DNA of 64,000 nucleotides from positions 139,268-203,267 of the forward strand of contig JADJQS010000008.1 of NCBI GenBank assembly GCA_016712635.1. The letters are read 5' to 3'. The stretch is from Gammaproteobacteria bacterium. Lineage in GTDB: Bacteria > Pseudomonadota > Gammaproteobacteria > SZUA-140. The translations under genes and the position numbers were made by a program. Positions 8,974 to 55,274 of this stretch are shown piece after piece. The notes under the pieces are model-generated. The model made no database searches and was not told where the DNA came from. It worked only from the letters and a program-made list of their open reading frames with translations. Each line of letters begins with the position of its first letter. Position 1 is the first letter of the stretch.

Positions 8974-9050
8974 GGCTATGTAGCTCAGTCGGTTAGAGCA
9001 CAGCATTCATAATGCTGGTGTCCCTGGTTCGAGTCCAGGCATAGCCACCA
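8974..9050 (+). tRNA. tRNA-Met (elongator, anticodon CAU)
   Basis: GGCTATGTAGCTCAGTCGGTTAGAGCACAGCATTCATAATGCTG...GCATAGCCACCA closely matches E. coli metT-type tRNA. Confidence 0.9.
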
Positions 9051-9510
9051 TCTTTCCATCCGAATAATGGCTCATGGCATCGGGCGCATGCTGCCGTTTG
9101 AGAATCAGGTTCTCAGGCGGCGCCATGAGCCCATGCGGATAGCGCCTTCTCATGTCCGCGCGACGCGCTTCCAGCCTGTGGTTTCAGATGTTCATCGCAG
9201 TAGCTCCCGGGGAAACGACGTTGTCGGCTTACAGTAAATTCGCTTTGTTCACGGAGGAATGCCTGGCATTTCACAACGATGTTCCGGTGGGGCGTGGTGC
9301 TGGTGGTGCTAGAGGTACACCGCTGATCGCCACGCCACCCTGTGTTCAAACGTCCGGGTCTCAATGCCTCATACATAGCGCGATTGACAGGCGCGGATCG
9401 TGAATGTGGCTTCTTATTGATATCTAAAAAAATTGATCCGATGTGCAAAATTCATTGATATTTAAGAAACTAACAATGTGCAAAAATTATGGAGAAATTA
9501 AGGAAAAACT

Positions 9511-9540
9511 TTGACTGCAATCACCAATTGTGATTAAACT
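9511..9540 (+). promoter_or_regulatory. putative sigma70-type promoter (TTGACT-17-TAAACT) with an operator-like inverted repeat AATCAC-N5-GTGATT (9519-9535) in the spacer; upstream direct repeats aATGTGCAAAAtt at 9441-9453 and 9475-9488
   Basis: AT-rich 300-bp leader between tRNA-Met and the first secreted-protein gene. The motifs were read directly from the sequence. Confidence 0.3.
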
Positions 9541-9722
9541 TGCCCTGAGTGTCTGGTCGGAAGGCGGTTCTGAGCGATTCCCCGGATGGAAGGTTGTGTA
9601 GCCCAGTGTTGCGCATGCACTCGGTTTCTCAGGGAGGTTTCTCATTAAGGACAATATAAGACACTGTTATATATATAATTTATAACAGTTTCTGCTCATA
9701 ATATATTCATTGGGAGAGACAA

Positions 9723-10745
9723 ATGAAGAAACTAACTTCTCTGTCCTTGGCGCCAGCCGCGATTTTCATCAGCGGCGCTGCCATGGCGGCACCGATCGGT
9801 GGCTACGACGCGTGGACGGTTAACGCGGGTACCATCACGGCGACCTGCCCGGCGGGCCATACGTGTTCCAACCTGGATGCCACCGGCAACGGCATTCTGC
9901 AGCAAAAGATGGTGGACAACGCTGACACCACCGTTTCCTACTTCCGTACCATCGTAGTCGACGAAGGCACCACCGCGACGGACCTGGCCTCGGTACAGGC
10001 CCTGGGTTTCCGCGTTGAAGGCCAGATCGGCATCGACGGCGGCGGCGGCAACAACTACACCAACCGCAGCGTGATCAAGGGCGGCTCGATCCTGGGCAAC
10101 GACCAGATGTCGACCATGGCCGAAGTCAACAGCGGCGCCCTGCAGGCGGGCAGCCTGGCCCCTGTCGTATTGGACCAAGAGCAGGGCCTGGGCTCGACTG
10201 CCCGTCGCATGGACTGGCATTTCCATGAGAACGGCGTGCACTACCTCGAGTTGAACGCCTACTCCTCCGGCGGTGTTGCCGGCGGCGGCACGGGCAACGA
10301 GGGCGCCATCACGGTGCGTCGTTCAGGCAACCTGACCCTCGGCGGCACCCTGACGCTGGATCCGAGCATCACTGAAGGTTCCCAGACCTTGGCCTATGCG
10401 GCCGGCAACTCCGTCACGGCGGTGTGGCTGACGCAGGCGGCCTCGGGCGTCGGTTCCTTCACGAACCGGACCCTCGGTCTGCAGCGCTATACCGTGGTGA
10501 CGGGCGCAGGCGGTCCCAAGACCAACGTCGGCGGCACCTCGATCGACGCGAGCAACAGGGATGGCGCGGGTAACTTCGCGATCACCCTGAATGCCACCGG
10601 CTCCGAGATCAGCGGTACGCAGTTCGGCTGGAACAATGCCCTGTTCGGTAACACGCCCCAGGAGTACTTCACCAACTCGCTCAACAGCGCGTTGGCAGCT
10701 CCCCCGGCGCCGGGTACCTACACCAATGACTTCGTCATTCCCTAA
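9723..10745 (+). CDS. secreted Gly/Thr/Asn-rich protein, paralog A (Sec signal MKKLTSLSLAPAAIFISGAAMA)
   Basis: Good RBS (GGGAGAGAcaaATG). N-terminal conserved module W-V-N-AGTIT-C...C-LDATG-GILQQ...VSYFRTIVVDEG is shared with the downstream paralog. No recognisable family. Confidence 0.7.
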   Translation: MKKLTSLSLAPAAIFISGAAMAAPIGGYDAWTVNAGTITATCPAGHTCSNLDATGNGILQQKMVDNADTTVSYFRTIVVDEGTTATDLASVQALGFRVEGQIGIDGGGGNNYTNRSVIKGGSILGNDQMSTMAEVNSGALQAGSLAPVVLDQEQGLGSTARRMDWHFHENGVHYLELNAYSSGGVAGGGTGNEGAITVRRSGNLTLGGTLTLDPSITEGSQTLAYAAGNSVTAVWLTQAASGVGSFTNRTLGLQRYTVVTGAGGPKTNVGGTSIDASNRDGAGNFAITLNATGSEISGTQFGWNNALFGNTPQEYFTNSLNSALAAPPAPGTYTNDFVIP

Positions 10746-10769
10746 CGACGCCTAGACAGGAGAGTAATC

Positions 10770-11699
10770 ATGAATCGCAAATATATAGCTTTGGCGATGG
10801 CGTCCGCGGGAGGGTTGCTGATTTCGGGTTCAGCCCTGGCGGGTTCCGCCGCAGCACACAATGCACCATTGAGCTTTGACCAGTACTCGGTCACCAACGG
10901 CACCATCACCGATACCTCGGTTGAGTGCGCCTCCACGTGGACCTGCGTGTCCCTGGATGCCACCAGCCCCGGTTTGCTGATGCAGCAGGTCACCGATCCG
11001 GGTAACGGCGTCTCCTTCATCCGCACCATCGTGGTGGAAGAGAACGCGAACGGCACGACGGCTGCGGGCCTGACGTTCTGGCAGGAAGCCCAGACGTATG
11101 CCAGCGGTGTCCTCAACAACAACATTGCCTTGACACAGGGAATTGTGGATGGCGGCATGGACTTCCGCGTCGACATTTACGAGCAGGCCTTCCGTACGGA
11201 CGGGGATATCTCCATCCCGACCAGCGGCGGCGGCGGCGCGGAGATGTACATGAACCAGACGATCGCCACGGCCGGTCAGACCTTCCAGCAGGATGGCGTG
11301 AACGGCAACGCGCGTCAGCGCATCGACCAGGTCCAGGGCACCAACCCGGGCAAGTTCACCTATGCCTCCATCGACGGCGCGGCGTTCATGCCGACCGTGG
11401 GCGGTACGCTGGGTGGCACGGTGATGCCGGCGCTGGCCTATGCCTCGACGGACGGCATCAGCGTGGTGTGGATCGGTGCGGATCAGCCGGGTAACTACGC
11501 GGCCTCGCTGCGTCAGTTCGGTTACCAGGAATTCCGCAACTGGGGTTCGATCGCGGTGACCGCTCCGGGCACCAACGTCGCGGCCGGCTCCTCGAGCTAC
11601 ATGGCGCAGGGCCCTCTGGGCCAGTTCACCGCCAACGGCTCGTGGGACTGGGATGCGGCGCTGTGGGATCTGGGCGCTGCGCCCTCCGGCCCGCCCTGA
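10770..11699 (+). CDS. secreted Gly/Thr-rich protein, paralog B (signal MNRKYIALAMASAGGLLISGSALA)
   Basis: RBS AGGAGAG. Shares YSVTNGTITDT...SLDATSPGLLMQQVTDPGNGVSFIRTIVVEE and a ...SVVWIG segment with paralog A. Confidence 0.7.
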   Translation: MNRKYIALAMASAGGLLISGSALAGSAAAHNAPLSFDQYSVTNGTITDTSVECASTWTCVSLDATSPGLLMQQVTDPGNGVSFIRTIVVEENANGTTAAGLTFWQEAQTYASGVLNNNIALTQGIVDGGMDFRVDIYEQAFRTDGDISIPTSGGGGAEMYMNQTIATAGQTFQQDGVNGNARQRIDQVQGTNPGKFTYASIDGAAFMPTVGGTLGGTVMPALAYASTDGISVVWIGADQPGNYAASLRQFGYQEFRNWGSIAVTAPGTNVAAGSSSYMAQGPLGQFTANGSWDWDAALWDLGAAPSGPP

Positions 11700-12297: not shown

Positions 12298-12507
12298 GAC
12301 TTGATCCTCCATGGGTTGGCCCGGTCTGCCCCAGATTAACCCCATGGAGCATCATTCGCCAAGCCGCTGCGCCATCTCTATGGCGTTCCAGGTGGCGGTT
12401 CAATAAACTGATGCCATGTACGTGAAATCGCACGCCGCGTGTCTGCATCTGGCGCCGTATCGGCGTGCGCACCTCATTGGATACCCGCGCCTTTCCTGCA
12501 AGCGTGT

Positions 12508-13956
12508 ATGAATCTGTCGATACGGCATAAGATCTTCCTGATATTGCTGTTATCGATCGGTCTCGTGGTGACGAGCATGACGGTGCTGATGACCTGGTCG
12601 CTGGAGCAGGTATTCGTACGCTTCATCGATGGTCAACAGCAGACGAGGATTCAAGGCATCGCGCAGCGCATCGAGAGGGAATACATCGAGGGTAGCGGCT
12701 GGGAGCGTCTCGATGAGAATCAGCTTCTGTGGGCGCAAATGCTGCTCGGGAACATCGATAATACGGTACAGCACCGTCCCGAGCTGTTCACGCCATCATC
12801 CACAGGGCACGCCGAGATCGTCCGGGACCGTGATCTGCTGCTGGCCCAAATCAAGCTTACCGAAGGCGGCTTTCTGCAGGCGGACCGCCGGGTCATGCTG
12901 CTCGACGCGGACAAATCGATCATCTACGGCGAGCCCGAGCTGGCGGACCTGCTTACCCTGCGTCCGATCACCGTCGACAAGCGCACCGTCGGCTACCTCG
13001 GAGTACTGCCCGGACCGTCGCTGGCGGACCTGAGCGCAGCCCATATACTCGACCAGCAGACCGACGCCTTCGCGTTCATTGCGCTGACGGTGATGCTGGT
13101 ATCCGCGCTGCTGGCCTACGCGTTTGCGGACCGCCTGATACAGCCATTGCGCGCCATTACCGAAGGTTCGCACGCCCTGGCGGCCGGGCATTACGATTCA
13201 CGCGTCCCGGTCCGGGGTTCGGATGAGCTGGGCCGGCTCGCACGGGATTTCAACAGCCTCGCCGAGGCGTTGCAGCACAACGAAGGGATACGCCGCCAAT
13301 GGGTTGCGGACATCTCGCACGAAATACGCACGCCGCTGGCTGTATTGCGCGGGGAACTCGAGGCCCTGCAGGACGGCGTGCGGTCACTGGATAGCAAGGC
13401 GGTCAATTCCCTGCATGGGGAAATCCTGCGCCTTAATCGCCTGGTGGACGATCTTTACGAGCTGTCCATGACCGATCTCGGCGCCTTGCAGTACCGCAAG
13501 ACCTTGGTGGATCCCGTCGCCATCCTGCTCGACGACCTCAAGTCGCACACCGAAGAGTTCCGCGCCGTCAATATCGATGTCACGCTGGAGAACCGGCTTG
13601 CCGAGGCAATATCCCTCAGCGCGGACCCGGACAGGCTGGAACAGCTGTTCTACAACCTGCTGGGCAATACGCTGCGCTATACGGACGCCGGTGGCCGCCT
13701 GCTGATCCGGGTGAGCCGGGACGAGCAGCAACTGATCCTGGATTTCATGGATTCCGCGCCGGGTGTTCCGGAGGAGGATATGCCGCGCCTGTTCGACCGG
13801 CTTTACCGCGTCGAGTCCTCCCGCAGCCGTGCCTTCGGCGGTGCGGGACTCGGGCTGGCCATTTGTCGTAATATCGTGCATGCCCATGGCGGGACCATCT
13901 CCGCGCAGACTTCCAGCCTGGGCGGACTGTGGGTGCGTGTCACGCTGCCTCTGTAG
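12508..13956 (+). CDS. two-component sensor histidine kinase, BaeS-like
   Basis: N-terminal TM region, HAMP, and an H-box VADISHEIRTPLAVLRGELEALQDGVR that closely resembles BaeS. HATPase motifs are present (GAGLGLAICRNIV). Confidence 0.85.
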   Translation: MNLSIRHKIFLILLLSIGLVVTSMTVLMTWSLEQVFVRFIDGQQQTRIQGIAQRIEREYIEGSGWERLDENQLLWAQMLLGNIDNTVQHRPELFTPSSTGHAEIVRDRDLLLAQIKLTEGGFLQADRRVMLLDADKSIIYGEPELADLLTLRPITVDKRTVGYLGVLPGPSLADLSAAHILDQQTDAFAFIALTVMLVSALLAYAFADRLIQPLRAITEGSHALAAGHYDSRVPVRGSDELGRLARDFNSLAEALQHNEGIRRQWVADISHEIRTPLAVLRGELEALQDGVRSLDSKAVNSLHGEILRLNRLVDDLYELSMTDLGALQYRKTLVDPVAILLDDLKSHTEEFRAVNIDVTLENRLAEAISLSADPDRLEQLFYNLLGNTLRYTDAGGRLLIRVSRDEQQLILDFMDSAPGVPEEDMPRLFDRLYRVESSRSRAFGGAGLGLAICRNIVHAHGGTISAQTSSLGGLWVRVTLPL

Positions 13957-24465: not shown

Positions 24466-27069
<2,604 letters not shown>

Positions 27070-27104
27070 ATGATAAGCTGCTTGCTATTAGATAGGGTTC
27101 TACA

Positions 27105-27302
27105 ATGTTGGAAATCTTCAGCGACATAAAAAGCCATTTCGACAGCTTGCAAGATCGCCTTGATGTATTTGGGAAATATGGAGTTCAGGTTGAGGGGTGG
27201 TTGAAAGGAGAGCTCCTGTTTAAGCTAAGTAAAATGAAGGACGAAGGCCTTATATTCGATTTCGATCGAGAAGTGTTAATTATGGGGACTAAGAAAAGAT
27301 AG
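27105..27302 (+). CDS. hypothetical protein (low-GC islet; possibly the 5' fragment of a disrupted gene)
   Basis: 65-aa ORF in an AT-rich segment. A second open frame (27330-27620) without an ATG start follows, so the gene may be decayed. Confidence 0.3.
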   Translation: MLEIFSDIKSHFDSLQDRLDVFGKYGVQVEGWLKGELLFKLSKMKDEGLIFDFDREVLIMGTKKR

Positions 27303-27720
27303 ATCTGAGGATAACAACTAACGATAGGGCTCAGCATTGGGTAGAGTTAAAGAATTAGACCAGTAAACAAAAAAGGAAGGTCTTATGACCCAAAATTCTA
27401 CTTTGGTGATAAACACGTAGGCATTTTTAATGATGTCGAAAAACTTAAATCTATATCGGAACCAAAATGGTTGGTGATATTAATAACGCCCAATACGACT
27501 AATGAAAAATGGGAAGAAGGAGTTCGGATTTTTGAGATTAAATACAATATCAATATTGAATCACATCAATCGCCTTCAATGTTCCAGGAGAATTATTTCT
27601 TAGGGTTGATTAGCATAAAATAAACTGCGGAAGAAAAGCCAATGTAACGGTGTAAAGTCTTGCGCCGCTACAATTTCTTACTATAAGACTTAGCGTCGTT
27701 ATTTTAAGGGGGGCAATCCA

Positions 27721-28098
27721 ATGCGATATAGTTATTGGGTTACTAATAAGCATCTTCTGATATGCGCAGCATTCATCTTTACAATTCTTGTCGTATCATC
27801 CCAAGTCGTTGCAGGTAAATTATATAGCCCCGCTGAATTACGTAGCATGGTAAAAAGCGGTAATTATCCACCTCAAGGAAAGGTTACGGATACTGAGACC
27901 CAAGCAATGAGCTTTCGTGCTTGTACGGAGCAAATCAATCAGATTATAGGCTCCATAACGCCAGAATATCCTGTAGAAATAATTGTCGATACGCAGATCA
28001 TGAAAATGATAAAAGCGTGGACTAATGACGGAGCGATTACACTTACATGTAGCGGACCTGATGAAAAATTTACTTTCACCACGGCACCGTATAAATGA
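27721..28098 (+). CDS. hypothetical secreted/membrane-anchored protein (low GC)
   Basis: 125 aa with an N-terminal hydrophobic segment (LLICAAFIFTILVVSSQVVA). AT-rich codon usage is distinct from the host. Confidence 0.5.
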   Translation: MRYSYWVTNKHLLICAAFIFTILVVSSQVVAGKLYSPAELRSMVKSGNYPPQGKVTDTETQAMSFRACTEQINQIIGSITPEYPVEIIVDTQIMKMIKAWTNDGAITLTCSGPDEKFTFTTAPYK

Positions 28099-28204
28099 GC
28101 AAACAGAATAACATCATCAAAAGGGTCAGTACCCTTTGTTGATCGAGCTTTGATTCCCTTGATCCGTTCCTTGGCTCGAATGTCAGGCGCCGAGTGAGGC
28201 CAGA

Positions 28205-28408
28205 TTGGACATATCCTTATTACTCTGGGGTCTGCTGTTCAGCTCGATCGGGCTCGGCTTCTTCATCTATGGCAGGAAGCAGAAGGCGGTCGTTCCGCTG
28301 GTGTGCGGGCTGGCCCTCATGATCTATCCGTACTTCGTCTCCAGCACGTTTCCGCTCGTCTCGATCGGGGCCGTGCTCATGGCCATTCCGTATTTCGTCA
28401 GGATATAG
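28205..28408 (+). CDS. small hydrophobic membrane protein (67 aa, two TM helices)
   Basis: MDISLLLWGLLFSSIGLGFFIYGRK...ALMIYPYFVSS...LMAIPYFVRI shows an internal repeat of two TM hairpins. Confidence 0.45.
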   Translation: MDISLLLWGLLFSSIGLGFFIYGRKQKAVVPLVCGLALMIYPYFVSSTFPLVSIGAVLMAIPYFVRI

Positions 28409-28474
28409 GTCAAGATCAATGGGATCTTCTGGCGAAAGCAGTCAAAGAGCTGGTGGCTTCCTGGAGGCAGAGAA

Positions 28475-28763
28475 ATGAGCAAAGCGTACACTGAAATATC
28501 TGCCGGCCTGAAGGAGGCGATCTCCCACGCCAAGGGAAAGAAAACCAGGACTCAGGATGCATCGCCATGAACCTATCGACGTCAAGGCCATTCGCGAGAA
28601 GACCGGGATGAGCCAGCAGCGGTTCTGCGCAACCTTTGGGATTTCGCTTGGTACCCTGCGTCATTGGGAGCAGGGCTTGCGTGCCCCGAGAGGTGCGGCG
28701 CGGGTGTTGCTCAAGGTGGTTGCTAGTAACCCGAAGGTGGTAATGAAGGCAATTGGCGAATAG
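28475..28763 (+). pseudogene. HigA/NadS-like HTH antitoxin, frameshifted (N-terminal 31 codons in one frame, HTH body in +1 frame)
   Basis: MSKAYTEISAGLKEAISHAKGKK... aligns with the intact paralog at 29275 (EILEGIREIRRGEHG). The HTH (KAIREKTGMSQQRFCATFGISLGTLRHWEQGLRAPRGAARVLLKV) continues in the next frame. The break maps to an A4 run near 28533-28536. Confidence 0.6.
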
Positions 28764-28952
28764 CCGGGAATAAATGAGGGAGAATTATTTTTTCTGCCCC
28801 GGTTATTTCCGGATAAGACATTGGCTTTATTGATTTCAAGGTGACCGCTGTGTAATTTCTTTCGCGAAAAGAGATTTTGTTCCTGCTGTCAGCCACAGGG
28901 AGGTGGCCGCCATGATGTACAGCTCTGTTGCTTCGCTTGACGTTATACGTCA

Positions 28953-29282
28953 ATGACGTATAACATGCCGTTGTTCACCTTTATCGAAACGAAACTGTTT
29001 TCACGGCTGGCAAGCGATTATCTGTCGGATGAGGAATACGCCTTGCTGCAGGGTACGCTGGCCGCGAACCCGGAGACTGGAAATCTGGTGCCGGGTTCAG
29101 GCGGTGTGCGCAAGCTGCGCTGGGCGCAGCCGGGCCGGGGCAAGCGGGGCGGGGTGCGTGTCATCTACTATGTCAGGTCGAGTGCAGGCATGATCTGGAT
29201 GCTGACGATCTACGCGAAGAACGAGGCGCAGAATATTCCTGCGCACATCCTGCGCGAGATCCGGGAGGAGATCGATGGCTAA
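28953..29282 (+). CDS. type II toxin, RelE/ParE superfamily (HigB-like, toxin-first arrangement)
   Basis: 109 aa with KLRWAQPGRGKRGGVRVIYYV...MIWMLTIYAKNE, typical of HigB-like killer proteins. It overlaps the downstream HTH antitoxin gene by 8 bp. Confidence 0.7.
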   Translation: MTYNMPLFTFIETKLFSRLASDYLSDEEYALLQGTLAANPETGNLVPGSGGVRKLRWAQPGRGKRGGVRVIYYVRSSAGMIWMLTIYAKNEAQNIPAHILREIREEIDG

Positions 29283-29547
29283 GGCGAAGCGCAACGTCGG
29301 CGTGGAGATTCTCGAAGGCATCCGCGAGATCAGGCGCGGGGAGCATGGCCGCGTCATCAACCTGCCGTCCATCGCCGCCATTCGCGAAGGCACCGGCCTG
29401 TCCCAGTCCCGCTTTGCCGAATTGCTGGGTGTTTCCGTGCGCACGCTGCAGGAATGGGAACAGGGGCGCCGGGCGCCGACCGGCGCGGCGCGCACGCTGC
29501 TGATGATCGCGCACAGGAATCCGCGCGCCTTGCTGGATGTGTCTTGA
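29275..29547 (+). CDS. HigA/NadS-like HTH antitoxin
   Basis: IREGTGLSQSRFAELLGVSVRTLQEWEQGRRAPTGAARTLLMI is an XRE-type HTH with the W-E-Q-G-R motif. Confidence 0.75.
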   Translation: MAKAKRNVGVEILEGIREIRRGEHGRVINLPSIAAIREGTGLSQSRFAELLGVSVRTLQEWEQGRRAPTGAARTLLMIAHRNPRALLDVS

Positions 29548-33002: not shown

Positions 33003-34295
33003 CTACTTGAACTTCGCCAGCTTGTCGCGCCAGCCCGGGAAGAGCATGTCGGCGTCTTTCGGGAACGAGTAGAAGGCGCGCGCGAATTCGCGGTGCTCCT
33101 TGGCGTACTCGACCGGGTTGGCGCCGGCCTTCCAGCACTCATAGGACTGCCGCAGCGAGATGGCGCCGGCGGCCGGGCTGTCGATGTGGCCGTAGGAGCC
33201 GCCGCCGGCGGTGTTGACCAGGTTGCCGTGGCCGAGGTTCTGGAAGAAGCCCGGCAGGCGCAGCGCGTTCATGCCGCCGGAGATGATCGGCGTCGTGGGT
33301 TTCATTCCGTACCACTTCTGCAGGTACACCGGGCCGCGGCTCTCGTCGCGCTCGATCATGTAGGCAATGATCTTGTCGTCGCCTTCGCCTTCCATCTTGC
33401 CGTAGCCCATGGTGCCGACGTGGATGCCGGAGGCGCCCTGCAGACGGCTCATCTTTGCCAGTACGAACGCGGTGTAGCCGCGCTTGGACGAGGGCGAGGT
33501 GACGGCGCCGTGGCCGGCGCGGTGGTAGTGCAGGTACTGGTCGGGGTACTGGCGACGCGCTGTCGTCACCATGCCGGGGCCGCCGACATAGCCGTCCACC
33601 AGGAAGGCCAGCTTGTCCGCGTCGGAGCCGAAGGTCTCCAGCGCGAAGTCGGCGCGGGCGCACATCTCGTAGTGGTCGTCGGCCGTGATGTTGAGGGAGA
33701 ACAGCTTGGCCTCGCCGGTCTTGTCCTGCGCACGCTTCAGCGAATCGTAGACCAGCGGCAGCGTCTTCTTCAGAGGAGAGAACACCTGGTTGCCCTGCGG
33801 CTCGTCGTTCTTGATGAAGTCGCCGCCGAGCCAGAACTCGTACGCAGCCTTCGCGAAGGGCTCGGGACGCAGGCCCAGCTTGGGCTTGATGATGGTGCCG
33901 GAGATGTAACCGCCGTCCTTGATCGGGCGGCCGAGGATGCGCCACAGGTCGGAGATGTCCTTGGACGGGCCGTCGAACAGCTGGATCGCGCGCGGCGGCA
34001 CGTGGAAGTCGATCATTCTGCCGTATTCGATGTCGCCCATGCCCTGGTTGTTGCCGATGGTCAGGGTCAGGAAGGACACCATCATCATGCGGCCGTCGGT
34101 GACGTTGCGGTCGAACAGGTCCAGCGGATAGGCGATGCGCATGTCCTCGTTCTGCTCGTCGATGTAGTAGACGAGCGCGTCGACGCCCTTGGTGAAATCG
34201 TCGGTCGTGCTGACTTCCACGTTGGTGCCGGTGGACGATTCGGCGGCGAAATGCGCGGCGGCCTCCAGATAGCCATGGCCGGCCTTCGGCTTCAT
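33003..34295 (-). CDS. cbbM: ribulose-1,5-bisphosphate carboxylase/oxygenase, form II large subunit
   Basis: Near-collinear with Rhodospirillum rubrum CbbM ([28 protein letters not shown]...[14 protein letters not shown]...[13 protein letters not shown]...). The conserved N-terminus continues upstream but out of frame (see finding). Confidence 0.93.
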
Positions 34296-35114: not shown

Positions 35115-35435
35115 ATGAAACTCGGCGTCATCATCGAGACGAACGAACCCGAAACGGCCTGGAACGGCGTGCGCTTCTGCAACGCAGCGCTGAAGAAGGG
35201 TCATTCCGTGAAGCTGTTCCTGATGAGCGCAGGCGTCGAGATCGAGAATATCCGGGGCGGCAAGTACGACATTGTGCTCCAGCTCGAGGAGTTCTCCGTC
35301 AACGGCGGCAAAGTGCTCGCCTGCGGCACCTGCATGAAATCGCGCAACCAGTCCGAATCGGATGTCTGCCCGACCTCGACCATGAACGACTGCGTGGAAA
35401 TGGCGGAGTGGGCGGACAAGGTAGTGACGTTCTGA
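35115..35435 (+). CDS. DsrE/DsrF-like sulfur-relay family protein (cytoplasmic)
   Basis: 106 aa. MKLGVIIETNEPETAWNGVRFCNAALKKGHSVKLFLMSAGV...ACGTCMKSR has the DsrE/TusD fold with conserved Cys. Confidence 0.75.
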   Translation: MKLGVIIETNEPETAWNGVRFCNAALKKGHSVKLFLMSAGVEIENIRGGKYDIVLQLEEFSVNGGKVLACGTCMKSRNQSESDVCPTSTMNDCVEMAEWADKVVTF

Positions 35436-36726: not shown

Positions 36727-37059
36727 GATCGGAAGGCGAGTACGGCCCGGTCAAGTTGCTGTGGCGTGGCGTGTCTCCGGTGGAGCCGGGCCAGGCAGCC
36801 GGAACAGGAATGGCAGTTGCTGCGGGCCTTCATCGGTTATTTCGACCGGCACACCGGCGAGCAGATCCAGACCGTCACCATCACAGAACTCTTATGCCGC
36901 CGTCACCCGGGGACCAGGCCGAGGTGCCCTGCGACATTATGTCGCAGGCGTACACAGACCCGGGCCGAATATACTGGCCGTGACTGTCGAGACCGGGGCC
37001 AGGCACCGTCCCCGCGTCCCGGACTTCGCTGCAATGACTCAACAAGGAAGGAGATATTC

Positions 37060-37479
37060 ATGAAACTGATTTCCCGATGGGCGCTGCTGCTCGCCCTGCT
37101 GGCCGCGGCAGCCGTTTCCCCTGTCATGGCGGGAGACACGGACCCGCTGTTCATCAATCTGACGACCGATGACCCGCACCGTGCCGAGATGGCCATCTCT
37201 TTCGGCAAGAATCAGTTCGAGCGCGGCCATCCCCTGACGATCTTCCTGAATGACAAGGGCGTGCATATCGGATCCAGGGCCGACGCCGCCAAGTTCGCCA
37301 GCCATCAGAAGGTGCTGGGAGAGCTGATCGGCAAGGGCACCGTGGTGCTGATCTGTCCCATGTGCATGAAGCATTACGGCGTGGATGAGGGCGATCTGCT
37401 GCCGGGATTGAAGGTCAGCAATCCCGAGCTCAGCGGCGCCGCGCTGTTCGAGGACGACGCCCGGACACTCACCTGGTAG
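37060..37479 (+). CDS. DsrE/DsrF-like family protein with Sec signal peptide (periplasmic)
   Basis: RBS GGAAGGAGAtattcATG. MKLISRWALLLALLAAAAVSPVMA signal. ...LTIFLNDKGVHIG...VVLICPMCMKHYG is a DsrE-like core. Confidence 0.7.
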   Translation: MKLISRWALLLALLAAAAVSPVMAGDTDPLFINLTTDDPHRAEMAISFGKNQFERGHPLTIFLNDKGVHIGSRADAAKFASHQKVLGELIGKGTVVLICPMCMKHYGVDEGDLLPGLKVSNPELSGAALFEDDARTLTW

Positions 37480-40345: not shown

Positions 40346-40684
40346 CCCCTCGGTGTGTTGTTATGGTGGCGACCGGCTGCTCTCACGGCGTCCGGGTAAA
40401 GGTCCGGAGTATAACCTCTGGCGGCGGCACGGCCCTATCCCCCTCAGGCGGCGCTCCCCGGCCCATTAGTTGACCGGAACTGTAAGGTATTCGGCCGGCG
40501 CCTGACGGGTCAGGCGCGGCAGCATCGACTTCGGGCGGTTTCTGCGCCCAGGTTTTAATTGCCAATCCGGGGCGGGGTCTGGGCTGGCGGCTCCGGAGGG
40601 TGCGAATCCGATATAATCGGGAGTCCCGGCGGGTCGCGTTTCCGGTCGATCCCCGGGTTCCCAAGTGAAACTGTCGGAGCGGGG

Positions 40685-41152
40685 ATGGATTTGAACGAAG
40701 TGTTTCCCAGCGGTTACCTGCACTATCTGGCGGGCGGACTGCTGATCGGCGGCGGGACGGCCCTGTTGTTCATCGGCGCCGGACTGATCGGCGGCATGAG
40801 CGGCATTTACTCGTCGGTCTGGTCCTGGTTTTCGCGCGCGCCCCATTTCCAGCAGGAGCGCATCCGGGGCAGCCGCGACTGGCGGCTGGTCTACTCGATC
40901 GGGCTGATCCTGGGGGCATTCCTCTGGCTCATTACCGGCGGTACGGCCTGGAGCACGGGCATCGGCGCGTGGCAACTGCTGCTCGGCGGGTTCGTCGCCG
41001 GATTCGGCGCGCGGCTCTCGAACGGCTGTACCTCCGGCCATGGCATCTGCGGTGTGGCCGCGCTGCAGCCGCCGTCCCTGCTGGCGGTGATCATCTTCAT
41101 GGCGACCGCGATCGCGACCGCGAACATTATGCGCGCGATGGGTGGCGCATGA
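40685..41152 (+). CDS. YeeE/YedE-family (DUF395) sulfur-compound transporter, half 1
   Basis: ...GGFVAGFGARLSNGCTSGHGICG matches the YeeE/YedE conserved Cys motif. Translationally coupled to half 2 (ATGA overlap). Confidence 0.75.
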   Translation: MDLNEVFPSGYLHYLAGGLLIGGGTALLFIGAGLIGGMSGIYSSVWSWFSRAPHFQQERIRGSRDWRLVYSIGLILGAFLWLITGGTAWSTGIGAWQLLLGGFVAGFGARLSNGCTSGHGICGVAALQPPSLLAVIIFMATAIATANIMRAMGGA

Positions 41153-48024: not shown

Positions 48025-48146
48025 TTATTATGGGTTCAGCATAGCATCATCGGGGGGCGGGGGAGAAGCCGGGAGAGGCGGGGTGTAAGGCGTGAGGGGT
48101 GAGGAGGGAAGGTTAAAAGCCTTGTTTCCGCGGTAAGTCATTAGCC

Positions 48147-48172
48147 GGGGACAGATTTACAAATCTGTCCCC
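48147..48172. repeat. REP-like palindrome GGGGACAGATTTACAAATCTGTCCCC
   Basis: Perfect 26-bp palindrome 29 bp downstream of the acnA stop. Confidence 0.85.
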
Positions 48173-48200
48173 TTTGTGTCGTGTCTTGTCGCCTCGCCCC

Positions 48201-50999
<2,799 letters not shown>

Positions 51000-51204: not shown

Positions 51205-52047
51205 TCAGCGATTTTCACCCGCGCTGATGCGCAGCAGCACGCGGTCGAGCAGGCGCTGGGGCAGCAGGCGGCGCGCCCAGGCGAACAGCCGGGTCGGCAC
51301 GGTGACGTGGTAGCGCGCGCGCGGGCGCGGGCTCTCCAGCGCGGCGATCAGCCGGTCCAGCACCGCCTCCGGCGGCAGCGTGAAGGGCGCGGCGGGCCCG
51401 GGTTTGGAGAGGCGCCGCTCCATGCCCTCGTAGCGCGCGCGGTGGACGCTGCGCGCGGGGTCGATGTGGCGGTAAAACGCCGCGCGCGCGTTGGCGCGGA
51501 AGCGGCTCGCGATCGGCCCCGGCTCGATCAGCACCACGTGGATGCCGCTCCCCGCCAGTTCGAGGCGCAGCGTGTCGGTCAGGCCTTCGAGCGCGAACTT
51601 GCTGGCGTTGTAGGCGCCGCGGTAGGGCAGGGCGACCAGGCCGAGCAGCGAGCTGTTGTTGACGATGCGGCCGTGGCCCTGCGCGCGCATCACCGGGATG
51701 ACGCGGTTGATGAGCTCCAGCGTGCCGAACAGGTTGGTCTCGAACTGCGCGCGGATCGCCGCGCGGCTGAGGTCCTCGACCGCGCCCGGCTGGCCGTAGG
51801 CGGCATTGTTGAACAGCGCGTCGAGCGTGCCTCCGGTGGCGGTGAGCACCGCGTCCACCGCGGCATGGATCGAGGCCGGATCGTCGAGGTCCAGCCGCAG
51901 GCTCTCGAATCCTTCGTCCGCCAGCCGTGCCACATCCTCAGGCTTGCGCGCCGTCGCGAACACGCGGTAACCGCGCGCCTTCAGCCCGCGCGCCGCACAC
52001 TCGCCGATGCCGGAGGAGCAGCCGGTGATGAGGATGGATTGGGGCAT
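51205..52047 (-). CDS. SDR-family short-chain dehydrogenase/reductase
   Basis: ILITGCSSGIGECAA (TGxxxGIG), NNAA, and the YNASK catalytic motif. Confidence 0.85.
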   Translation of the reverse strand: MPQSILITGCSSGIGECAARGLKARGYRVFATARKPEDVARLADEGFESLRLDLDDPASIHAAVDAVLTATGGTLDALFNNAAYGQPGAVEDLSRAAIRAQFETNLFGTLELINRVIPVMRAQGHGRIVNNSSLLGLVALPYRGAYNASKFALEGLTDTLRLELAGSGIHVVLIEPGPIASRFRANARAAFYRHIDPARSVHRARYEGMERRLSKPGPAAPFTLPPEAVLDRLIAALESPRPRARYHVTVPTRLFAWARRLLPQRLLDRVLLRISAGENR

Positions 52048-52059
52048 GCGATGCTTCAT

Positions 52060-52173
52060 GTCAGAGGTGAGGCGTCAGGCGTGAGGTGTGTGGCGGGAAA
52101 CACAACGCTTGCAACGATGTTGATGATAGATATTACTTTCCTCACTCCTCACTCCTCACTCCTCAATCCTCAC
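52060..52173. repeat. inverted tandem-heptamer arrays: GTGAGGN x5 (52060-52094) and TCCTCAC x5 (52139-52173), 44-bp spacer
   Basis: Read directly. The arms are reverse complements. They lie between the DUF1614-like gene stop and the SDR gene start. Confidence 0.8.
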
Positions 52174-52844
52174 GCCAGGAGAACCGCCACGATCCCCGTC
52201 AGGAAAATCCCGTCGAACGTGCCCGCGCCGCCGATGGAGGCGACCGGCACGCCCATGCGGCGGATGTTGCCGAGGCGCAGCAGGTCGGCACCGATGAGCA
52301 CGCCCAGCGTGCCGCAGATGTAGGCCAGCGGCGCGCTCTGCTCGCTGTTGATCAGCAGCGCGACGATCGCGGCCGTGAGCGGGGCGATGAAGATCGGCAT
52401 GCCGATTCCGATGCCGGCGACCGGGCGGCTGAAGGCGTGGCACACCGCGGTGACCAGCGCGGTCGCGATCAGCACCTGATGCACCGGCAGGGGATGGTGG
52501 TTCATCAGGTAGAACGAGAACATCACCGGGATCAGGCCGCCGCCGACGTTGATCGCGATCATGGTGCGGCCCTTGAATTCCTTCATCGCCCGCTGCAGCA
52601 GGCCGCGCAGCCGCTCCGGCACCTGCTCCAGCGAGGCGGCCTCGGCGCGCACGCTGAACAGCGGCAGGTTGATCGCGCTGCCGAACAGCGAGCTGAACAG
52701 CAGCAGGATCGCGGAGTGCTGCGACAGGCCGAGCTTCTCGAACGCGATGGTGAGCGCGCCAACCTGCACGAAGGCGACCAGGAAGGCGATCAGCAGGATG
52801 AAGCCGAACAGATAGGGCGGCGAGAACGGGGATTTCATGCCCAT
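52170..52844 (-). CDS. polytopic membrane protein, DUF1614-like (tentative)
   Basis: 224 aa, about 6 TM. Family assignment is from memory of DUF1614-type sequences and is low confidence. It is flanked on both sides by heptamer inverted-repeat arrays. Confidence 0.5.
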   Translation of the reverse strand: MGMKSPFSPPYLFGFILLIAFLVAFVQVGALTIAFEKLGLSQHSAILLLFSSLFGSAINLPLFSVRAEAASLEQVPERLRGLLQRAMKEFKGRTMIAINVGGGLIPVMFSFYLMNHHPLPVHQVLIATALVTAVCHAFSRPVAGIGIGMPIFIAPLTAAIVALLINSEQSAPLAYICGTLGVLIGADLLRLGNIRRMGVPVASIGGAGTFDGIFLTGIVAVLLA

Positions 52845-52853
52845 GGCGGTGGA

Positions 52854-53043
52854 AAGGATAGGACTAAGGACTTAGGACTGAGGACTGAGTAAAAACCCAA
52901 AATACAAATTCTATGGGTGGGCATGGGTATTTACCCACGTGAACCGCGACGTTTATTTTCGCGTGGGCGCGAACTTCGCGCTCACCCCGCGATTCACAGG
53001 TTTTGATTTTCACTCAGTCCTCAGTCCTTAGTCCTAAGTCCTG
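52854..53043. repeat. inverted tandem-heptamer arrays: AGGACTN x4-5 (52854-52891) and NAGTCCT x4 (53013-53043), ~120-bp spacer
   Basis: Read directly. The arrays are reverse complements of each other. The distal array supplies the last ~8 codons of the upstream ABC transporter ORF. Confidence 0.8.
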
Positions 53044-54816
53044 TGTTATGCGCTCGCGCTGGCGCTGCTCCTGCTGCAGCGCCCACATCCTGGCGTACAC
53101 CCCGGCGCCGGCGAGCAGCTCGCGGTGCGTGCCCTGCTCGACCAGACGGCCTTGTTCCATCACCAGGATGCGGTCTGCGTCGACGATGGTCGACAGGCGG
53201 TGCGCGATGACCAGCGTGGTGTGGTCGGCCGCGACCTCGCGCAGCGCGCGCAGGATCGCCTGCTCGGATTCCGAGTCGAGCGCCGAGGTGGCCTCGTCGA
53301 ACACCAGGATGCGCGGCTGCTTGAGGATGGCGCGTGCGATCGCGATGCGCTGTTTTTCGCCGCCGGAGACCTTGAGCCCGCGCTCGCCGACGACGGTGTC
53401 GAAGCCGTCGGGCAGGTTTGCGATGAAGCGAGTCAGGTGCGCCATCTCCGCCGCGCGCTCGATCTCCGCGCGGTCCGCCTCGGGGCGCGCGTAGGCGATG
53501 TTGTAATAGATGGTGTCGTTGAACAGCACCGTGTCCTGCGGCACGATGGCGATGGCCGCGCGCAGGCTCTGCTGGGAGATGTCGCGGATGTCGGCGCCGT
53601 CGATGCGGATCGCGCCCCGGTCGACGTCGTAGAAGCGGAACAGCAGGCGGACCAGGGTGGACTTGCCGCCGCCGCTCGGGCCCACCACCGCCACCTTCTG
53701 CCCGGGCGTGATCTCGAAGCTGATATCGTCGAGGATGCGGCGGCGGTCGTTGTAGGCGAAGCCGACGCGGTCGAAGACGACATGGCCGCGCCCCGCGGGC
53801 AGCGCGGGCGCGGCATGCCTGTCGTTCACGTCACGCTGCTCGGCAAGCAGCCGGAACATGCGCTCCATGTCCGCCAGCGAATGCTTGATCTCGCGATACA
53901 CGAAGCCGAGGAAGTTCATCGGGATGAACATCTGCATCATGTAGACGTTGATCATGACGAGGTCGCCCAGCGTCATGCCGCCGTTGGCGACGCCGCGCCC
54001 GGCCAGCAGCAGCATCCCGGTCATGCCGAAGGTGATGATGGCGCCCTGGCCGATGTTGAGCGAGGCGAGCGAGGTCTGGCTCCTGATCGCGGCGCCCTCC
54101 CAGTCGCGCAGGTTGGCGTCGTAGCGGCGCGCCTCGTAGTCCTCGTTGCCGAAGTACTTCACGGTCTCGTAGTTGAGCAGGCTGTCGATCGCCCGGGTGT
54201 TGGCCTTCGAGTCCATCTCGTTCATCTCGCGCCGGAACTTCATGCGCCATTCGGTCACCAGCAGCGTGAAGGCGATGTAGATGACGGCGCAGCCGAGCGG
54301 GATGAGGGCGAACCAGGCGTCGTAACTGATCAGCAATATGACCGCGATCAGGCCGATCTCGATCAGCGTCGGCAGGATGTTGAACACCATGAAATTGAGC
54401 AGGAAGCTGATGCCGCGGCTGCCGCGTTCGATGTCGCGTGACACGCCGCCGGTCTGGCGGTCGAGGTGGAAGCGCAGCGACAGCGAGTGCAGGTGGCGGA
54501 ACACCTGCAGCGCGATGCGGCGGATCGAGCTCTGGGTGACCTTGGCGAAGATGGCGTCGCGCAATTCGCCGAACACCACACCGGCGAGGCGCACCGCGCC
54601 GTAGCCGAGGATCAGCCCGAGCGGGACGAGGATGACCGGCTGCAGGCTGGCGTCGAGGGCATCGACGATGTGCTTGAGCACCAGCGGGACGCCGACGTTG
54701 GCGACCTTGGCCAGGACCAGGCAGAACAGGGCGAGCAGCACCCGCGGCTTGTGTTCCCACAGGAAGGGGAGCAGGGTCTTCAGGGTGTGCCAGTCGTTGC
54801 GCTCGGGCGGGGTCAT
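53014..54816 (-). CDS. ABC transporter permease/ATP-binding protein, Atm1/ABCB7-like exporter
   Basis: TMD with ...LNYETVKYFGNEDYEARRYD (Atm1-type). NBD has GPSGGGKST, LSGGEKQRIAIAR, and ILVFDEATSALD. Confidence 0.85.
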   Translation of the reverse strand: MTPPERNDWHTLKTLLPFLWEHKPRVLLALFCLVLAKVANVGVPLVLKHIVDALDASLQPVILVPLGLILGYGAVRLAGVVFGELRDAIFAKVTQSSIRRIALQVFRHLHSLSLRFHLDRQTGGVSRDIERGSRGISFLLNFMVFNILPTLIEIGLIAVILLISYDAWFALIPLGCAVIYIAFTLLVTEWRMKFRREMNEMDSKANTRAIDSLLNYETVKYFGNEDYEARRYDANLRDWEGAAIRSQTSLASLNIGQGAIITFGMTGMLLLAGRGVANGGMTLGDLVMINVYMMQMFIPMNFLGFVYREIKHSLADMERMFRLLAEQRDVNDRHAAPALPAGRGHVVFDRVGFAYNDRRRILDDISFEITPGQKVAVVGPSGGGKSTLVRLLFRFYDVDRGAIRIDGADIRDISQQSLRAAIAIVPQDTVLFNDTIYYNIAYARPEADRAEIERAAEMAHLTRFIANLPDGFDTVVGERGLKVSGGEKQRIAIARAILKQPRILVFDEATSALDSESEQAILRALREVAADHTTLVIAHRLSTIVDADRILVMEQGRLVEQGTHRELLAGAGVYARMWALQQEQRQRERITQDLGLRTED

Positions 54817-54947
54817 GACACGCCCAGCTTACCGGGGGGTTGCCGCACAGGCAATGAAGGTCCGCCCGCCCGTTTATGCCCTCGGCTTGAATTTTCCCGG
54901 GAAAAGCCCCATCGTCTGGTGTGGTTTGTAACAGAAGGGGTACGCGA

Positions 54948-55274
54948 ATGCCGATTTACGAATATTCCTGCGGCGCCTGCGGGCACGCACTGGAAGCGAT
55001 GCAGAAGATGAACGACCCGGCGCTGACCGACTGTCCCGCCTGCGGCAAGCCGGCGCTGAAGAAGCAGATATCCGCCGCGGGCTTCGTGCTCAAGGGCGGC
55101 GGCTGGTACGCCACCGATTTCCGCGACAAGGGCAAGAAGAAGGACGACACCCAGAAAGACGACACCCAGAAAGACGACGCCAAGAAAGACTCCAAGTCTG
55201 CCGCTGCGGGCGATGCCCCCGCGCCGGCCGCCGCCGGGTGTGGCTCGGGCGCCTGCGACGCCTGCGCGGACTGA
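54948..55274 (+). CDS. FmdB-family zinc-ribbon protein
   Basis: MPIYEYSCGACGH...CPACG CxxC pairs and an acidic/Lys-rich tail. Conserved partner of DUF502 upstream of aspS. Confidence 0.8.
   Translation: MPIYEYSCGACGHALEAMQKMNDPALTDCPACGKPALKKQISAAGFVLKGGGWYATDFRDKGKKKDDTQKDDTQKDDAKKDSKSAAAGDAPAPAAAGCGSGACDACAD

Follow-up and report, generated by a model that had tools for sequence, protein, structure and literature searches.

Heptameric repeats in bacteria and the locus analysed

In many bacteria, no long simple-sequence repeats (SSRs) are more over-represented than the heptameric ones. In pathogens, phase-variable heptanucleotide SSRs are placed between the promoter and the start of surface-protein genes and set their expression level, and phase-variable 7-bp repeats lie upstream of the hmw adhesin genes of Haemophilus influenzae. 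The arrays described here were found in a 64-kb stretch of DNA from an uncultured gammaproteobacterium (assembly GCA_016712635.1, contig JADJQS010000008.1, positions 139,268 to 203,267; 64,000 nt, hereafter the window), in which heptamers form inverted pairs at gene ends, including both flanks of a gene for a DUF1614 membrane protein. They are like the pathogen SSRs in their 7-nt unit and strain-variable unit number, but constitute inverted pairs at the ends of housekeeping genes.

The inverted-pair form had been described once before, in Xanthomonas campestris and X. axonopodis, where GGGAATC or GGGNATC heptamers make up about 185 arrays per genome, usually of about four units (Rehm et al., 2015; PMC4692102). 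In 70-75 cases per genome (about 40%) two convergent arrays have the potential to form a stem-loop; 89-93% of the arrays are intergenic, mostly between co-directional open reading frames (ORFs) and rarely between divergent ones, and the C-rich strand is placed just upstream of the next ORF (PMC4692102). Unit number changes from species to species but the arrays stay single or paired, and the repeats are transcribed, show no tie to particular gene functions and no association with mobile elements, and have no assigned function (PMC4692102). A predominance of 7-nt units among long SSRs has also been reported (Mrazek, 2007).

Two other repeat systems are relevant. The TAACTGA heptamers of Beggiatoaceae and cyanobacteria (169 direct sets against one indirect in BOGUAY) are located just upstream of start codons, and the binding of a post-transcriptional regulator has been proposed for them (MacGregor, 2015; PMC4679880). 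Together with the short tandemly repeated repetitive (STRR) heptamers of cyanobacteria, they are similar to the arrays of the window in the heptamer unit, the intergenic site, the patchy distribution that includes sulfur-oxidising gammaproteobacteria, the slippage-type length variation and the lack of an assigned function, but they are direct instead of inverted and precede start codons rather than being found at stops. The REP, BIME and REPIN extragenic palindromes, with their RAYT (Y1 transposase) partners (e.g. PMC3333891), are likewise multi-copy extragenic hairpins that follow stop codons, in spacers of co-directional or convergent genes, with a genome-specific consensus and rapid gain and loss. 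In contrast, the REP unit is an imperfect palindrome of 20-40 nt, two of which make up a REPIN, whereas the heptamer arms are tandem arrays without internal dyad symmetry that change copy number in 7-nt steps.

The object described here is a further case of the known, functionally unexplained kind of repeat found in Xanthomonas. As there, the arms consist of tandem 7-nt units (at least two, perfect or heterogeneous; 4.3-5.0 copies here), the arms are convergent with the G/purine-rich arm first (23 metagenome pairs vs. one among the matches listed), placement is intergenic and mainly co-directional, as in all elements of the window and of the sister genomes L085 and L088, and unit number varies at retained sites (3 vs. 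6 units in one case and 3 to 5 in another). The rules of architecture, placement and unit-number change described for Xanthomonas are all reproduced with another unit, and transcription is presumed. The units differ in sequence and in G3 tracts, with the window arrays having GG runs only; the host is also different, an uncultured sulfur-oxidising gammaproteobacterium; and, unlike in the Xanthomonas report, the elements and a REP-like palindrome replace each other at orthologous sites, and swaps are seen between near-identical strains. On balance, we consider it probable that these elements belong to a dispersed class of extragenic hairpins with AGGAsTN tandem stems, of the Xanthomonas kind and with a REP-like role at gene ends.

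Three heptamer hairpins between co-directional genes

The genes bordering the arrays are all encoded on the minus strand:

53014-54816, minus strand: ABC exporter gene (Pfam domains ABC_membrane and ABC_tran), stop codon TGA at 53014-53016
52170-52844, minus strand: DUF1614 membrane-protein gene (Pfam E = 7e-55), stop codon TGA at 52170-52172
51205-52059, minus strand: short-chain dehydrogenase (SDR) gene, start codon at 52057-52059
48201-50999, minus strand: aconitase gene, stop codon TGA at 48201-48203, in the first unit of element C (see below)

The DUF1614 gene starts at ATG 52844 or ATG 52838; its relatives are annotated from the second (52838), giving 222 aa, and an exact-protein look-up of the window protein returned no record.

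Arrays were searched for in the whole window with Tandem Repeats Finder (TRF) and a lag-7 scan with a threshold of 19/21 lag-7 matches. As the earlier note on this DNA had read from the letters, TRF detected a TCCTCAC array at 52139-52173 (period 7, 5.0 copies, 92% matches, score 63) and two AGGACTG-type arrays in inverse orientation, at 52860-52889 (4.3 copies, score 46) and at 53013-53042 (score 46). These three were the only period-7 arrays found in the 64 kb by the lag-7 scan, and no array of period 5, 6, 8 or 9 was found in the window at the same stringency. Markov-1 simulations produced 0 arrays in 200 sequences, compared to the three observed. The heptamers of the two pairs had been called unrelated, but in register AGGACTG and AGGAGTG (= GTGAGGA) are one base apart, and the single pattern AGGAsTN catches both pairs; three consecutive units of it, with up to 2 mismatches, matched 7 times in the window vs. 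0 times in 100 shuffles. A further array (48082-48109) was seen when the lag-7 threshold was relaxed. The arrays make up three elements, read here on the gene strand:

53001-53042, minus strand: element A (ABC-DUF1614 spacer), 5' arm, AGGACTT AGGACTA AGGACTG AGGACTG then AGTGAAAATCAAAA
52902-53000, minus strand: element A, loop of 99 nt, AT-richer, with small internal hairpins
52860-52901, minus strand: element A, 3' arm, TTTGGGTTTTTACT CAGTCCT CAGTCCT AAGTCCT TAGTCCT
52139-52177, minus strand: element B (DUF1614-SDR spacer), 5' arm, GGC GTGAGGA TTGAGGA GTGAGGA GTGAGGA GTGAGGA
52095-52138, minus strand: element B, loop of 44 nt, partly homologous to the loop at the same site of sister genome L088
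52060-52094, minus strand: element B, 3' arm, degenerate, CCACACA CCTCACG CCTGACG CCTCACC TCTGAC
48190-48207, minus strand: element C (aconitase-PilZ spacer), short 5' arm, GGCGTGAGGGGCGAGGCG, containing the aconitase stop TGA at 48201-48203
48082-48109, minus strand: element C, 3' arm, CCCTCCTCACCCCTCACGCCTTACACC

The arms of element A are 42 nt each (52860-52901 and 53001-53042), 88% complementary and 99 nt apart, and the RNA of the gene strand folds with -102.8 kcal/mol (z = -11.8). The ABC gene ends within the 5' arm of element A, with its 10 final codons and the stop TGA (53014-53016), so that the distal arm encodes the C-terminus of the transporter (...ITQDLGLRTED*), as had been noticed. 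These 10 non-conserved residues are the only part of any protein overlapping an array, and the array has stops in all frames. From the 3' arm to the start codon of DUF1614 there are about 15-20 nt without a Shine-Dalgarno (SD) sequence. An apparent inner conserved sequence beside the AGGACTN arms was merely a partial unit that prolongs the stem.

In element B, the first unit of the 5' arm (the last TCCTCAC unit of the forward strand) contains the DUF1614 stop, TGA 52170-52172, in agreement with the earlier note, and the 3' arm abuts the start codon of the SDR gene (52057-52059). This latter arm had been described as five GTGAGGN units, but it is degenerate (GTCAGAG GTGAGGC GTCAGGC GTGAGGT GTGTGGC), with two exact units only. 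A stem of about 35 bp had been proposed for each pair; the upstream pair is better than this, whereas the downstream arms match without gaps over 21 nt at most, at 76%.

Element C (~48082-48207) is a third heptamer hairpin, of GTGAGGN type, located 4 kb from elements A and B and 3' of the aconitase stop. On the gene strand the aconitase ORF ends with GCG TGA GGGGCGAGGCG, and CCCTCCTCACCCCTCACGCC follows about 90 nt further on; the fold of 48070-48206 gave -51.2 kcal/mol (z = -4.8). Therefore, the arrays do lie on both flanks of DUF1614, but the picture of a single flanked gene was misleading.

The three elements follow the same position rule. All are in spacers between co-directional genes, the purine-rich arm overlaps or adjoins the stop codon of the upstream gene, and 0-20 nt separate the end of the pyrimidine-rich arm from the next start codon. 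In the window, L085 and L088, the DUF1614 and aconitase genes both have their stop codon inside the first GTGAKGN unit, and so does the DUF1614 gene of the more distant genome L053. The elements are similar to Rho-independent terminators in forming a stem-loop directly 3' of the stop, but lack a U-tract: the terminator scan detected the REP-like palindromes only and none of the heptamer stems, which are followed by TCCTTTCCACC or CTGACATG, so the earlier statement that these are not standard terminators was right. No promoter-like sites were found in the loops. Rfam gave no relevant match in 47.5-53.5 kb at E up to 1, and two tRNAs only in the whole window, and literature searches for the exact array strings returned irrelevant primer matches only.

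In the stretch from the aconitase hairpin to the PilZ gene, some 45 nt, GGCTTCTCCCCCGCCnCnCGATGATGCTAnGCTGAnCCCATAATAA (48025-48070, minus strand), are almost unchanged in four genomes while the rest of the spacer is divergent. This block may be a promoter or 5'-untranslated-region element of the PilZ gene.

A REP-like palindrome family in the same niche

A second family of hairpins, GGGGACAGATTTnnAAATCTGTCCCC, is present in the window in at least 11 copies in 64 kb, each of about 24-26 nt and mostly immediately 3' of stop codons:

48147-48172, no strand assigned: REP-like palindrome GGGGACAGATTTACAAATCTGTCCCC, 26 nt, nested in the loop of element C
19608, 32606, 38973, 41674, 48000, 48147, 55932, 56003, 59253, 59299 and 59971: positions of the REP-like copies

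The palindromes of the form GGGGACAGATTT..AAATCTGTCCCC, at least 11 in the window, typically stand directly after stops. They are classified as REP-like by sequence and position, the search for a RAYT gene having covered the window ORFs. The family also occurs in the sister genomes, where it alternates with heptamer hairpins at orthologous sites. Thus, the nadA-DUF7379 site has a GGGGACAG palindrome in the window, L081 and L088 and a GTGATGG heptamer hairpin in L085, and the DUF1614-SDR spacer of L081-L084 has two copies of the palindrome GGGGACnGATTTnAAATCnGTCCCC and zero heptamers. This interchange of heptamer elements and REPs at orthologous sites was not reported for Xanthomonas.

Slippage and replacement in sister genomes

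Relatives at 85-92% identity were obtained by protein search, with the sister lineages at about 90% protein identity and about 125 kb of sequence surveyed for the clade. The nearest assemblies are those of uncultured Gammaproteobacteria GCA_016716465.1 and GCA_020845975.1 (DUF1614 at about 90% protein identity). On the contigs of the relatives the gene order ABC - DUF1614 - SDR - aconitase - PilZ is kept. A search of the genome for further arrays had been proposed; over the window and sister regions of about 20 kb, it yielded the third element of the window and more in the sisters. L085 has 4 elements in 20.7 kb (nadA-DUF7379, ABC-DUF1614, DUF1614-SDR and aconitase-PilZ) and L088 has 3, that is, 3-4 per 20 kb in these genomes vs. 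3 per 64 kb in the window. These junctions, both the same and others, point to a dispersed class and not to a DUF1614-specific device.

In the ABC-DUF1614 spacer, inverted AGGACTN-like arms are present in all four lineages of the 90% level with unrelated loops; that of element A is not conserved in the sister genomes, which have other palindromes there instead. The number of units is 4 in the window and 5 in L085, and ranges from 3 to 5 across the four genomes. The repeat-encoded tail of the ABC protein, whose conservation the earlier note had suggested checking, is not conserved, and in one sister genome the gene stops before the array. DUF1614 lacks an SD sequence in any of the four genomes, with its ATG 11-20 nt past the 3' arm.

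The DUF1614-SDR spacer was more variable. GTGAGGA and CCTCAC arms are found in the window and in L088, whereas L085 has GTGATGG x3 and L086, with an identical DUF1614 protein, GTGATGG x6; over 2677 nt these two assemblies differ by 1 mismatch and one 21-nt gap. The tracts are therefore prone to slippage, as predicted, and the length polymorphism between strains that was to be looked for does exist. In L087, with the same protein as L085 and flanks that are 99.86% identical, the spacer holds an AGGACTN hairpin instead, and the replacement takes in the last two codons of DUF1614 and runs on to about codon 8 of SDR, altering the SDR N-terminus. Such turnover between strains otherwise more than 99.8% identical likewise goes beyond the Xanthomonas report. 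In contrast, arrays were identical in 10 contigs of the P0005 species from several samples.

The first 3-9 residues of the SDR protein are fully different between strains with flanks more than 99.8% identical (variable sites at 52030-52059 in the window, 10812-10846 in L085 and 896-912 in L087), reading MKHRMPQ, MTHRTPR, MKSPSPP, MKARDIPDR or MSR, each followed by SILITGCSSGIG. These differences arise because the replacement of the spacer extends into the start region. A caution for annotation follows: repeat-encoded protein tails and variable N-termini at such junctions are by-products of spacer turnover.

The aconitase-PilZ hairpin is present in all four lineages, as GTGAGGN in three of them and as GTGATGG in L085. 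Three loci of L085 have GTGATGG in both arms, whereas the window, L088 and L081 use GTGAGGN at the two orthologous loci, and the heptamer site at nadA-DUF7379 is filled in L085 alone. The three GTGATGG copies of L085 have the arms and about 9 nt in common, and their loops are unrelated; on the other hand, loops at orthologous sites are partly homologous although the arms differ.

Among more distant relatives, L218 (85%) is without the upstream element but has an AGGACTN hairpin downstream of DUF1614, and the 76% relative (L221/L222) has a long hairpin with a different unit, (TTAAGAG)7..., right 3' of the stop. No heptamer element was found around DUF1614 in the 79% (L219) and 74% (L223) relatives.

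Distribution in GTDB loci and metagenomes

The GTDB scan comprised 80 listed loci (1.15 Mb), with the closest relatives being outside that listing; the orthologues among the matches listed are distant (up to 73% protein identity) and all belong to Gammaproteobacteria or Chromatiales-like metagenome-assembled genomes (MAGs). These loci contained 13 arrays, several of them in Thiohalophilus, and most loci were without both DUF1614-flanking elements. An enrichment at DUF1614 was considered and rejected, as 4 of the 13 arrays adjoin this gene, which has about 2 of the 14 spacers per locus, a suggestive but not significant proportion.

In L053, a marine MAG with 60% protein identity, (GTGAGGA)x9 at 778-844 spans the whole DUF1614-SDR junction with no inverted partner. 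One unit provides the TGA stop of DUF1614, and a later unit the in-frame GTG start of SDR with AGGAG 7 nt upstream; to judge by the letters, this array is a tandemly amplified stop / Shine-Dalgarno / start junction. Arrays of various units lie next to DUF1614 in L005, L053, L073 and L222, and in L073, a Thiohalomonadaceae MAG, CCTTGAA arrays are found on either side of the gene. Long arrays or hairpins of other units (TTAAGAG/CGCTTAA, CCTTGAA/TTCAAAG x19, CTAGGGG and CTCAGAA) were located as follows, L032 being the cultured Thiohalophilus thiocyanatoxydans DSM 16326:

L222: 2946-3243
L073: 3954-4292, 8989-9038, 9772-9845 and 10752-10783
L032: 479-639 and 13791-13827

When metagenomes were scanned with three AGGAsTN units, at least 120 contigs were matched, with GC from 0.33 to 0.71; all metagenome counts given in this work are among the matches listed. 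In 31 arrays (23 distinct pairs) an inverted partner lay downstream with the purine-rich arm first, compared to a single array with the opposite order, 84 single arrays and 18 at contig ends. The pairs were found in co-directional (9), convergent (7) and divergent (2) contexts, and their loops were arbitrary. For 43 intergenic single arrays, oriented by the purine-rich strand, the median distance was 14 nt to the left ORF vs. 54 nt to the right ORF; 33 of the 43 were nearer the left ORF and 34 had this ORF on the strand of the array, with flanking genes convergent in 22 cases and divergent in 3. This placement indicates elements of gene 3' ends, on the coding strand and just past the stop. The idea that an array serves as a three-frame stop cassette was rejected, as the stop-less AGGAsTC occurs per locus as often as the variants ending in G or T (last base C/G/T/A = 36/36/35/13).

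A 13.5-kb contig from a human-gut metagenome (L140, 53% GC) also has AGGAGTT/AGGAGTG arrays and an inverted pair (222-328, 2106-2125 and 12475-12522), meaning that this hairpin class is not confined to environmental Gammaproteobacteria.

Possible role of the hairpins and alternative explanations

In the dispersed class of REP-like gene-end hairpins proposed above, the arrays lengthen and shorten by replication slippage, whole spacers are exchanged between near-identical strains, and heptamer hairpins and ordinary REP-like palindromes compete for the same gene-end sites. Co-transcribed with the upstream gene, the arms would fold in RNA into long stem-loops, acting like REP elements as a 3'-end or intercistronic barrier. 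Candidate effects are the protection of the upstream mRNA (exonuclease barrier), a damped read-through (partial terminator or insulator) or an RNase III site, and slippage might tune the length of the stem. By analogy with REP elements, therefore, the hairpins probably function as 3'-end or intercistronic RNA stem-loops.

Several results weigh against this proposal. The fold of element B was no better than those of shuffles (z = -1.3, 25/200 shuffles as good), and the ABC-DUF1614 arms are decayed in L081 and L088. The stems are followed by no U-tract and hence are not canonical intrinsic terminators. Sense and antisense folds were equally good in 13 elements, without a G-U asymmetry in favour of RNA over DNA, and in four orthologous elements the complementarity of an arm to its own partner was not above that across genomes, giving no signal of compensatory change. 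Because these asymmetry and complementarity tests were negative or neutral, it is possible that the elements are a neutral by-product of slippage, tolerated only at gene ends, which would yield much of the same picture. Moreover, arrays of different units at the DUF1614 junction in several separate lineages are unpredicted by a non-specific model, and neither the near-absolute polarity of the arms nor the parallel change from GTGAGGN to GTGATGG at several loci of one lineage is explained by a simple one.

An alternative is a mobile or actively homogenised family, analogous to REP/REPIN-RAYT or to miniature transposable elements with inverted repeats (MITEs), in which an enzyme or gene conversion spreads a genome-specific hairpin to permissive gene ends. 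The concerted use of GTGATGG at three L085 loci against GTGAGGN in the window, L088 and L081 is in agreement with this, as are the nadA site filled in L085 only, the replacement of a GTGATGG by an AGGACTN element within flanks 99.86% identical, the AGGACTN type at the same DUF1614-SDR site of the 85% relative, and the 23:1 polarity, expected for a family defined by its ends. MITEs are also similar in having inverted terminal arms around a variable core. We nevertheless find such a family unlikely. Copies with the same arms have unrelated loops, both in the L085 trio and in the metagenomes, which led us to reject copy-and-paste mobility; the copies share no core, and at the nadA site specific to L085 there is no visible target-site duplication; a scan of 57 window ORFs gave neither a transposase nor a Y1/RAYT domain; partly homologous loops with differing arms fit a change of the arms in place better than an insertion; and the Xanthomonas repeats were reported without association to mobile elements (PMC4692102). 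A further reading, to which we also assign little probability, is that of a distinct and widespread class with its own biogenesis, through a trans-acting enzyme or binding factor or through hairpin-templated expansion, and with a definite function in events coupled to termination at stop codons. If true, this biogenesis would have to preserve a genome-specific unit among dispersed loci (GTGATGG at three loci vs. GTGAGGN in the sisters), impose the purine-rich-arm-5' polarity on both strands (23:1) and return repeatedly to particular junctions, the end of DUF1614 among them.

The heptamers could also be bound by a trans-acting factor, whether a protein or, through the SD-like AGGAG, the ribosome; the hairpins would then regulate translation, by bringing the upstream stop and the downstream start to the base of the stem for coupling or by masking and unmasking the SD-like repeats. 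The units do carry an SD core (AGGAG or AGGA) and the 3' arm is anti-SD-like, DUF1614 lacks an SD sequence in four genomes with its ATG shortly after the 3' arm, in L053 the array provides both the DUF1614 stop and an SDR start preceded by AGGAG, and a regulator has been proposed to bind the TAACTGA heptamers (PMC4679880). However, convergent genes, between which there is nothing to initiate, flank 7 of the 18 pairs and half of the single arrays, heptamers that are not SD-like occupy the same junction in other lineages (CCTTGAA, TTAAGAG) and GGGAATC is used in Xanthomonas, the SD-like arm of the window is paired and 110-180 nt from the start codon, and no candidate factor was identified, making this explanation rather improbable. 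Still less credit is given to a locus-specific regulatory or phase-variation device for DUF1614, as the earlier note had envisaged, despite arrays on both flanks of the gene, the varied arrays adjoining it in L005, L053, L073 and L222, and a polymorphic unit number. Identical elements are found at aconitase-PilZ and nadA-DUF7379, with four junctions occupied in 20 kb of L085; REP-like palindromes substitute for them at orthologous sites; the upstream element is missing in the 85%, 79% and 74% relatives and both in most GTDB loci listed, where the adjacency of 4 in 13 is not significant (the gene has about 2 of the 14 spacers); arrays are the same in ten contigs that represent one species in several samples; and the arrays are outside promoters and conserved coding sequence. 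Coding-frame phase variation is excluded, with the arrays beyond the conserved parts of the proteins and all three frames of the ABC tail stopping within the array. The heptamer elements are thus not dedicated regulators of the DUF1614 gene. Finally, G-quadruplex formation, the property stressed for the Xanthomonas and Nostoc heptamers, would fit the L085 variant if read as GGGTGAT (G3 tracts with 4-nt loops in 3-6 copies) and the GGGG runs of element C, but it is most improbable for these arrays, as the main ones of the window (AGGACTN and GTGAGGA) have GG runs only and orthologous elements switch between G3 and G3-free units while keeping the inverted-repeat architecture. Judging from the units, a G3 tract is a property of the particular heptamer and not of the architecture.

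An uncultured sulfur oxidiser and many metagenome contigs show the same architecture and position rules with non-quadruplex units, which argues for the hairpin and its placement at gene ends, rather than G-quadruplex formation, as the common denominator with the Xanthomonas repeats. For the gene-end hairpins that we favour, the strain pairs and defined junctions reported above constitute concrete material for functional tests.

Other features of the window

Genes for a RuBisCO large subunit, DsrE-family proteins and sulfur transport (33003-34295, 35115-35435, 36766-37479 and 40559-41152) indicate that the source of the window is a sulfur-oxidising autotroph. A low-GC islet (27100-29300, minimum 27% GC) with small ORFs only is located directly 3' of clpB (24466-27069) and includes a putative toxin-antitoxin pair, proposed from the translations alone, at 28557-28763 (helix-turn-helix type) and 28953-29282. 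Just downstream of a tRNA-Met gene (8974-9050), a stretch with a GC of about 0.20 (9371-9759) contains an 11-nt repeat, AAAAATTAAGG, at 9482-9508; the ORFs that follow (9723-11699) had no Pfam match, and the AT-rich stretch may be an integration scar. Within a Zn_ribbon_8 gene (54921-55274), 3.5 tandem copies of a 15-nt unit, AGAAAGACGACACCC (TRF score 85; 55138-55190), encode an in-frame pentapeptide repeat.

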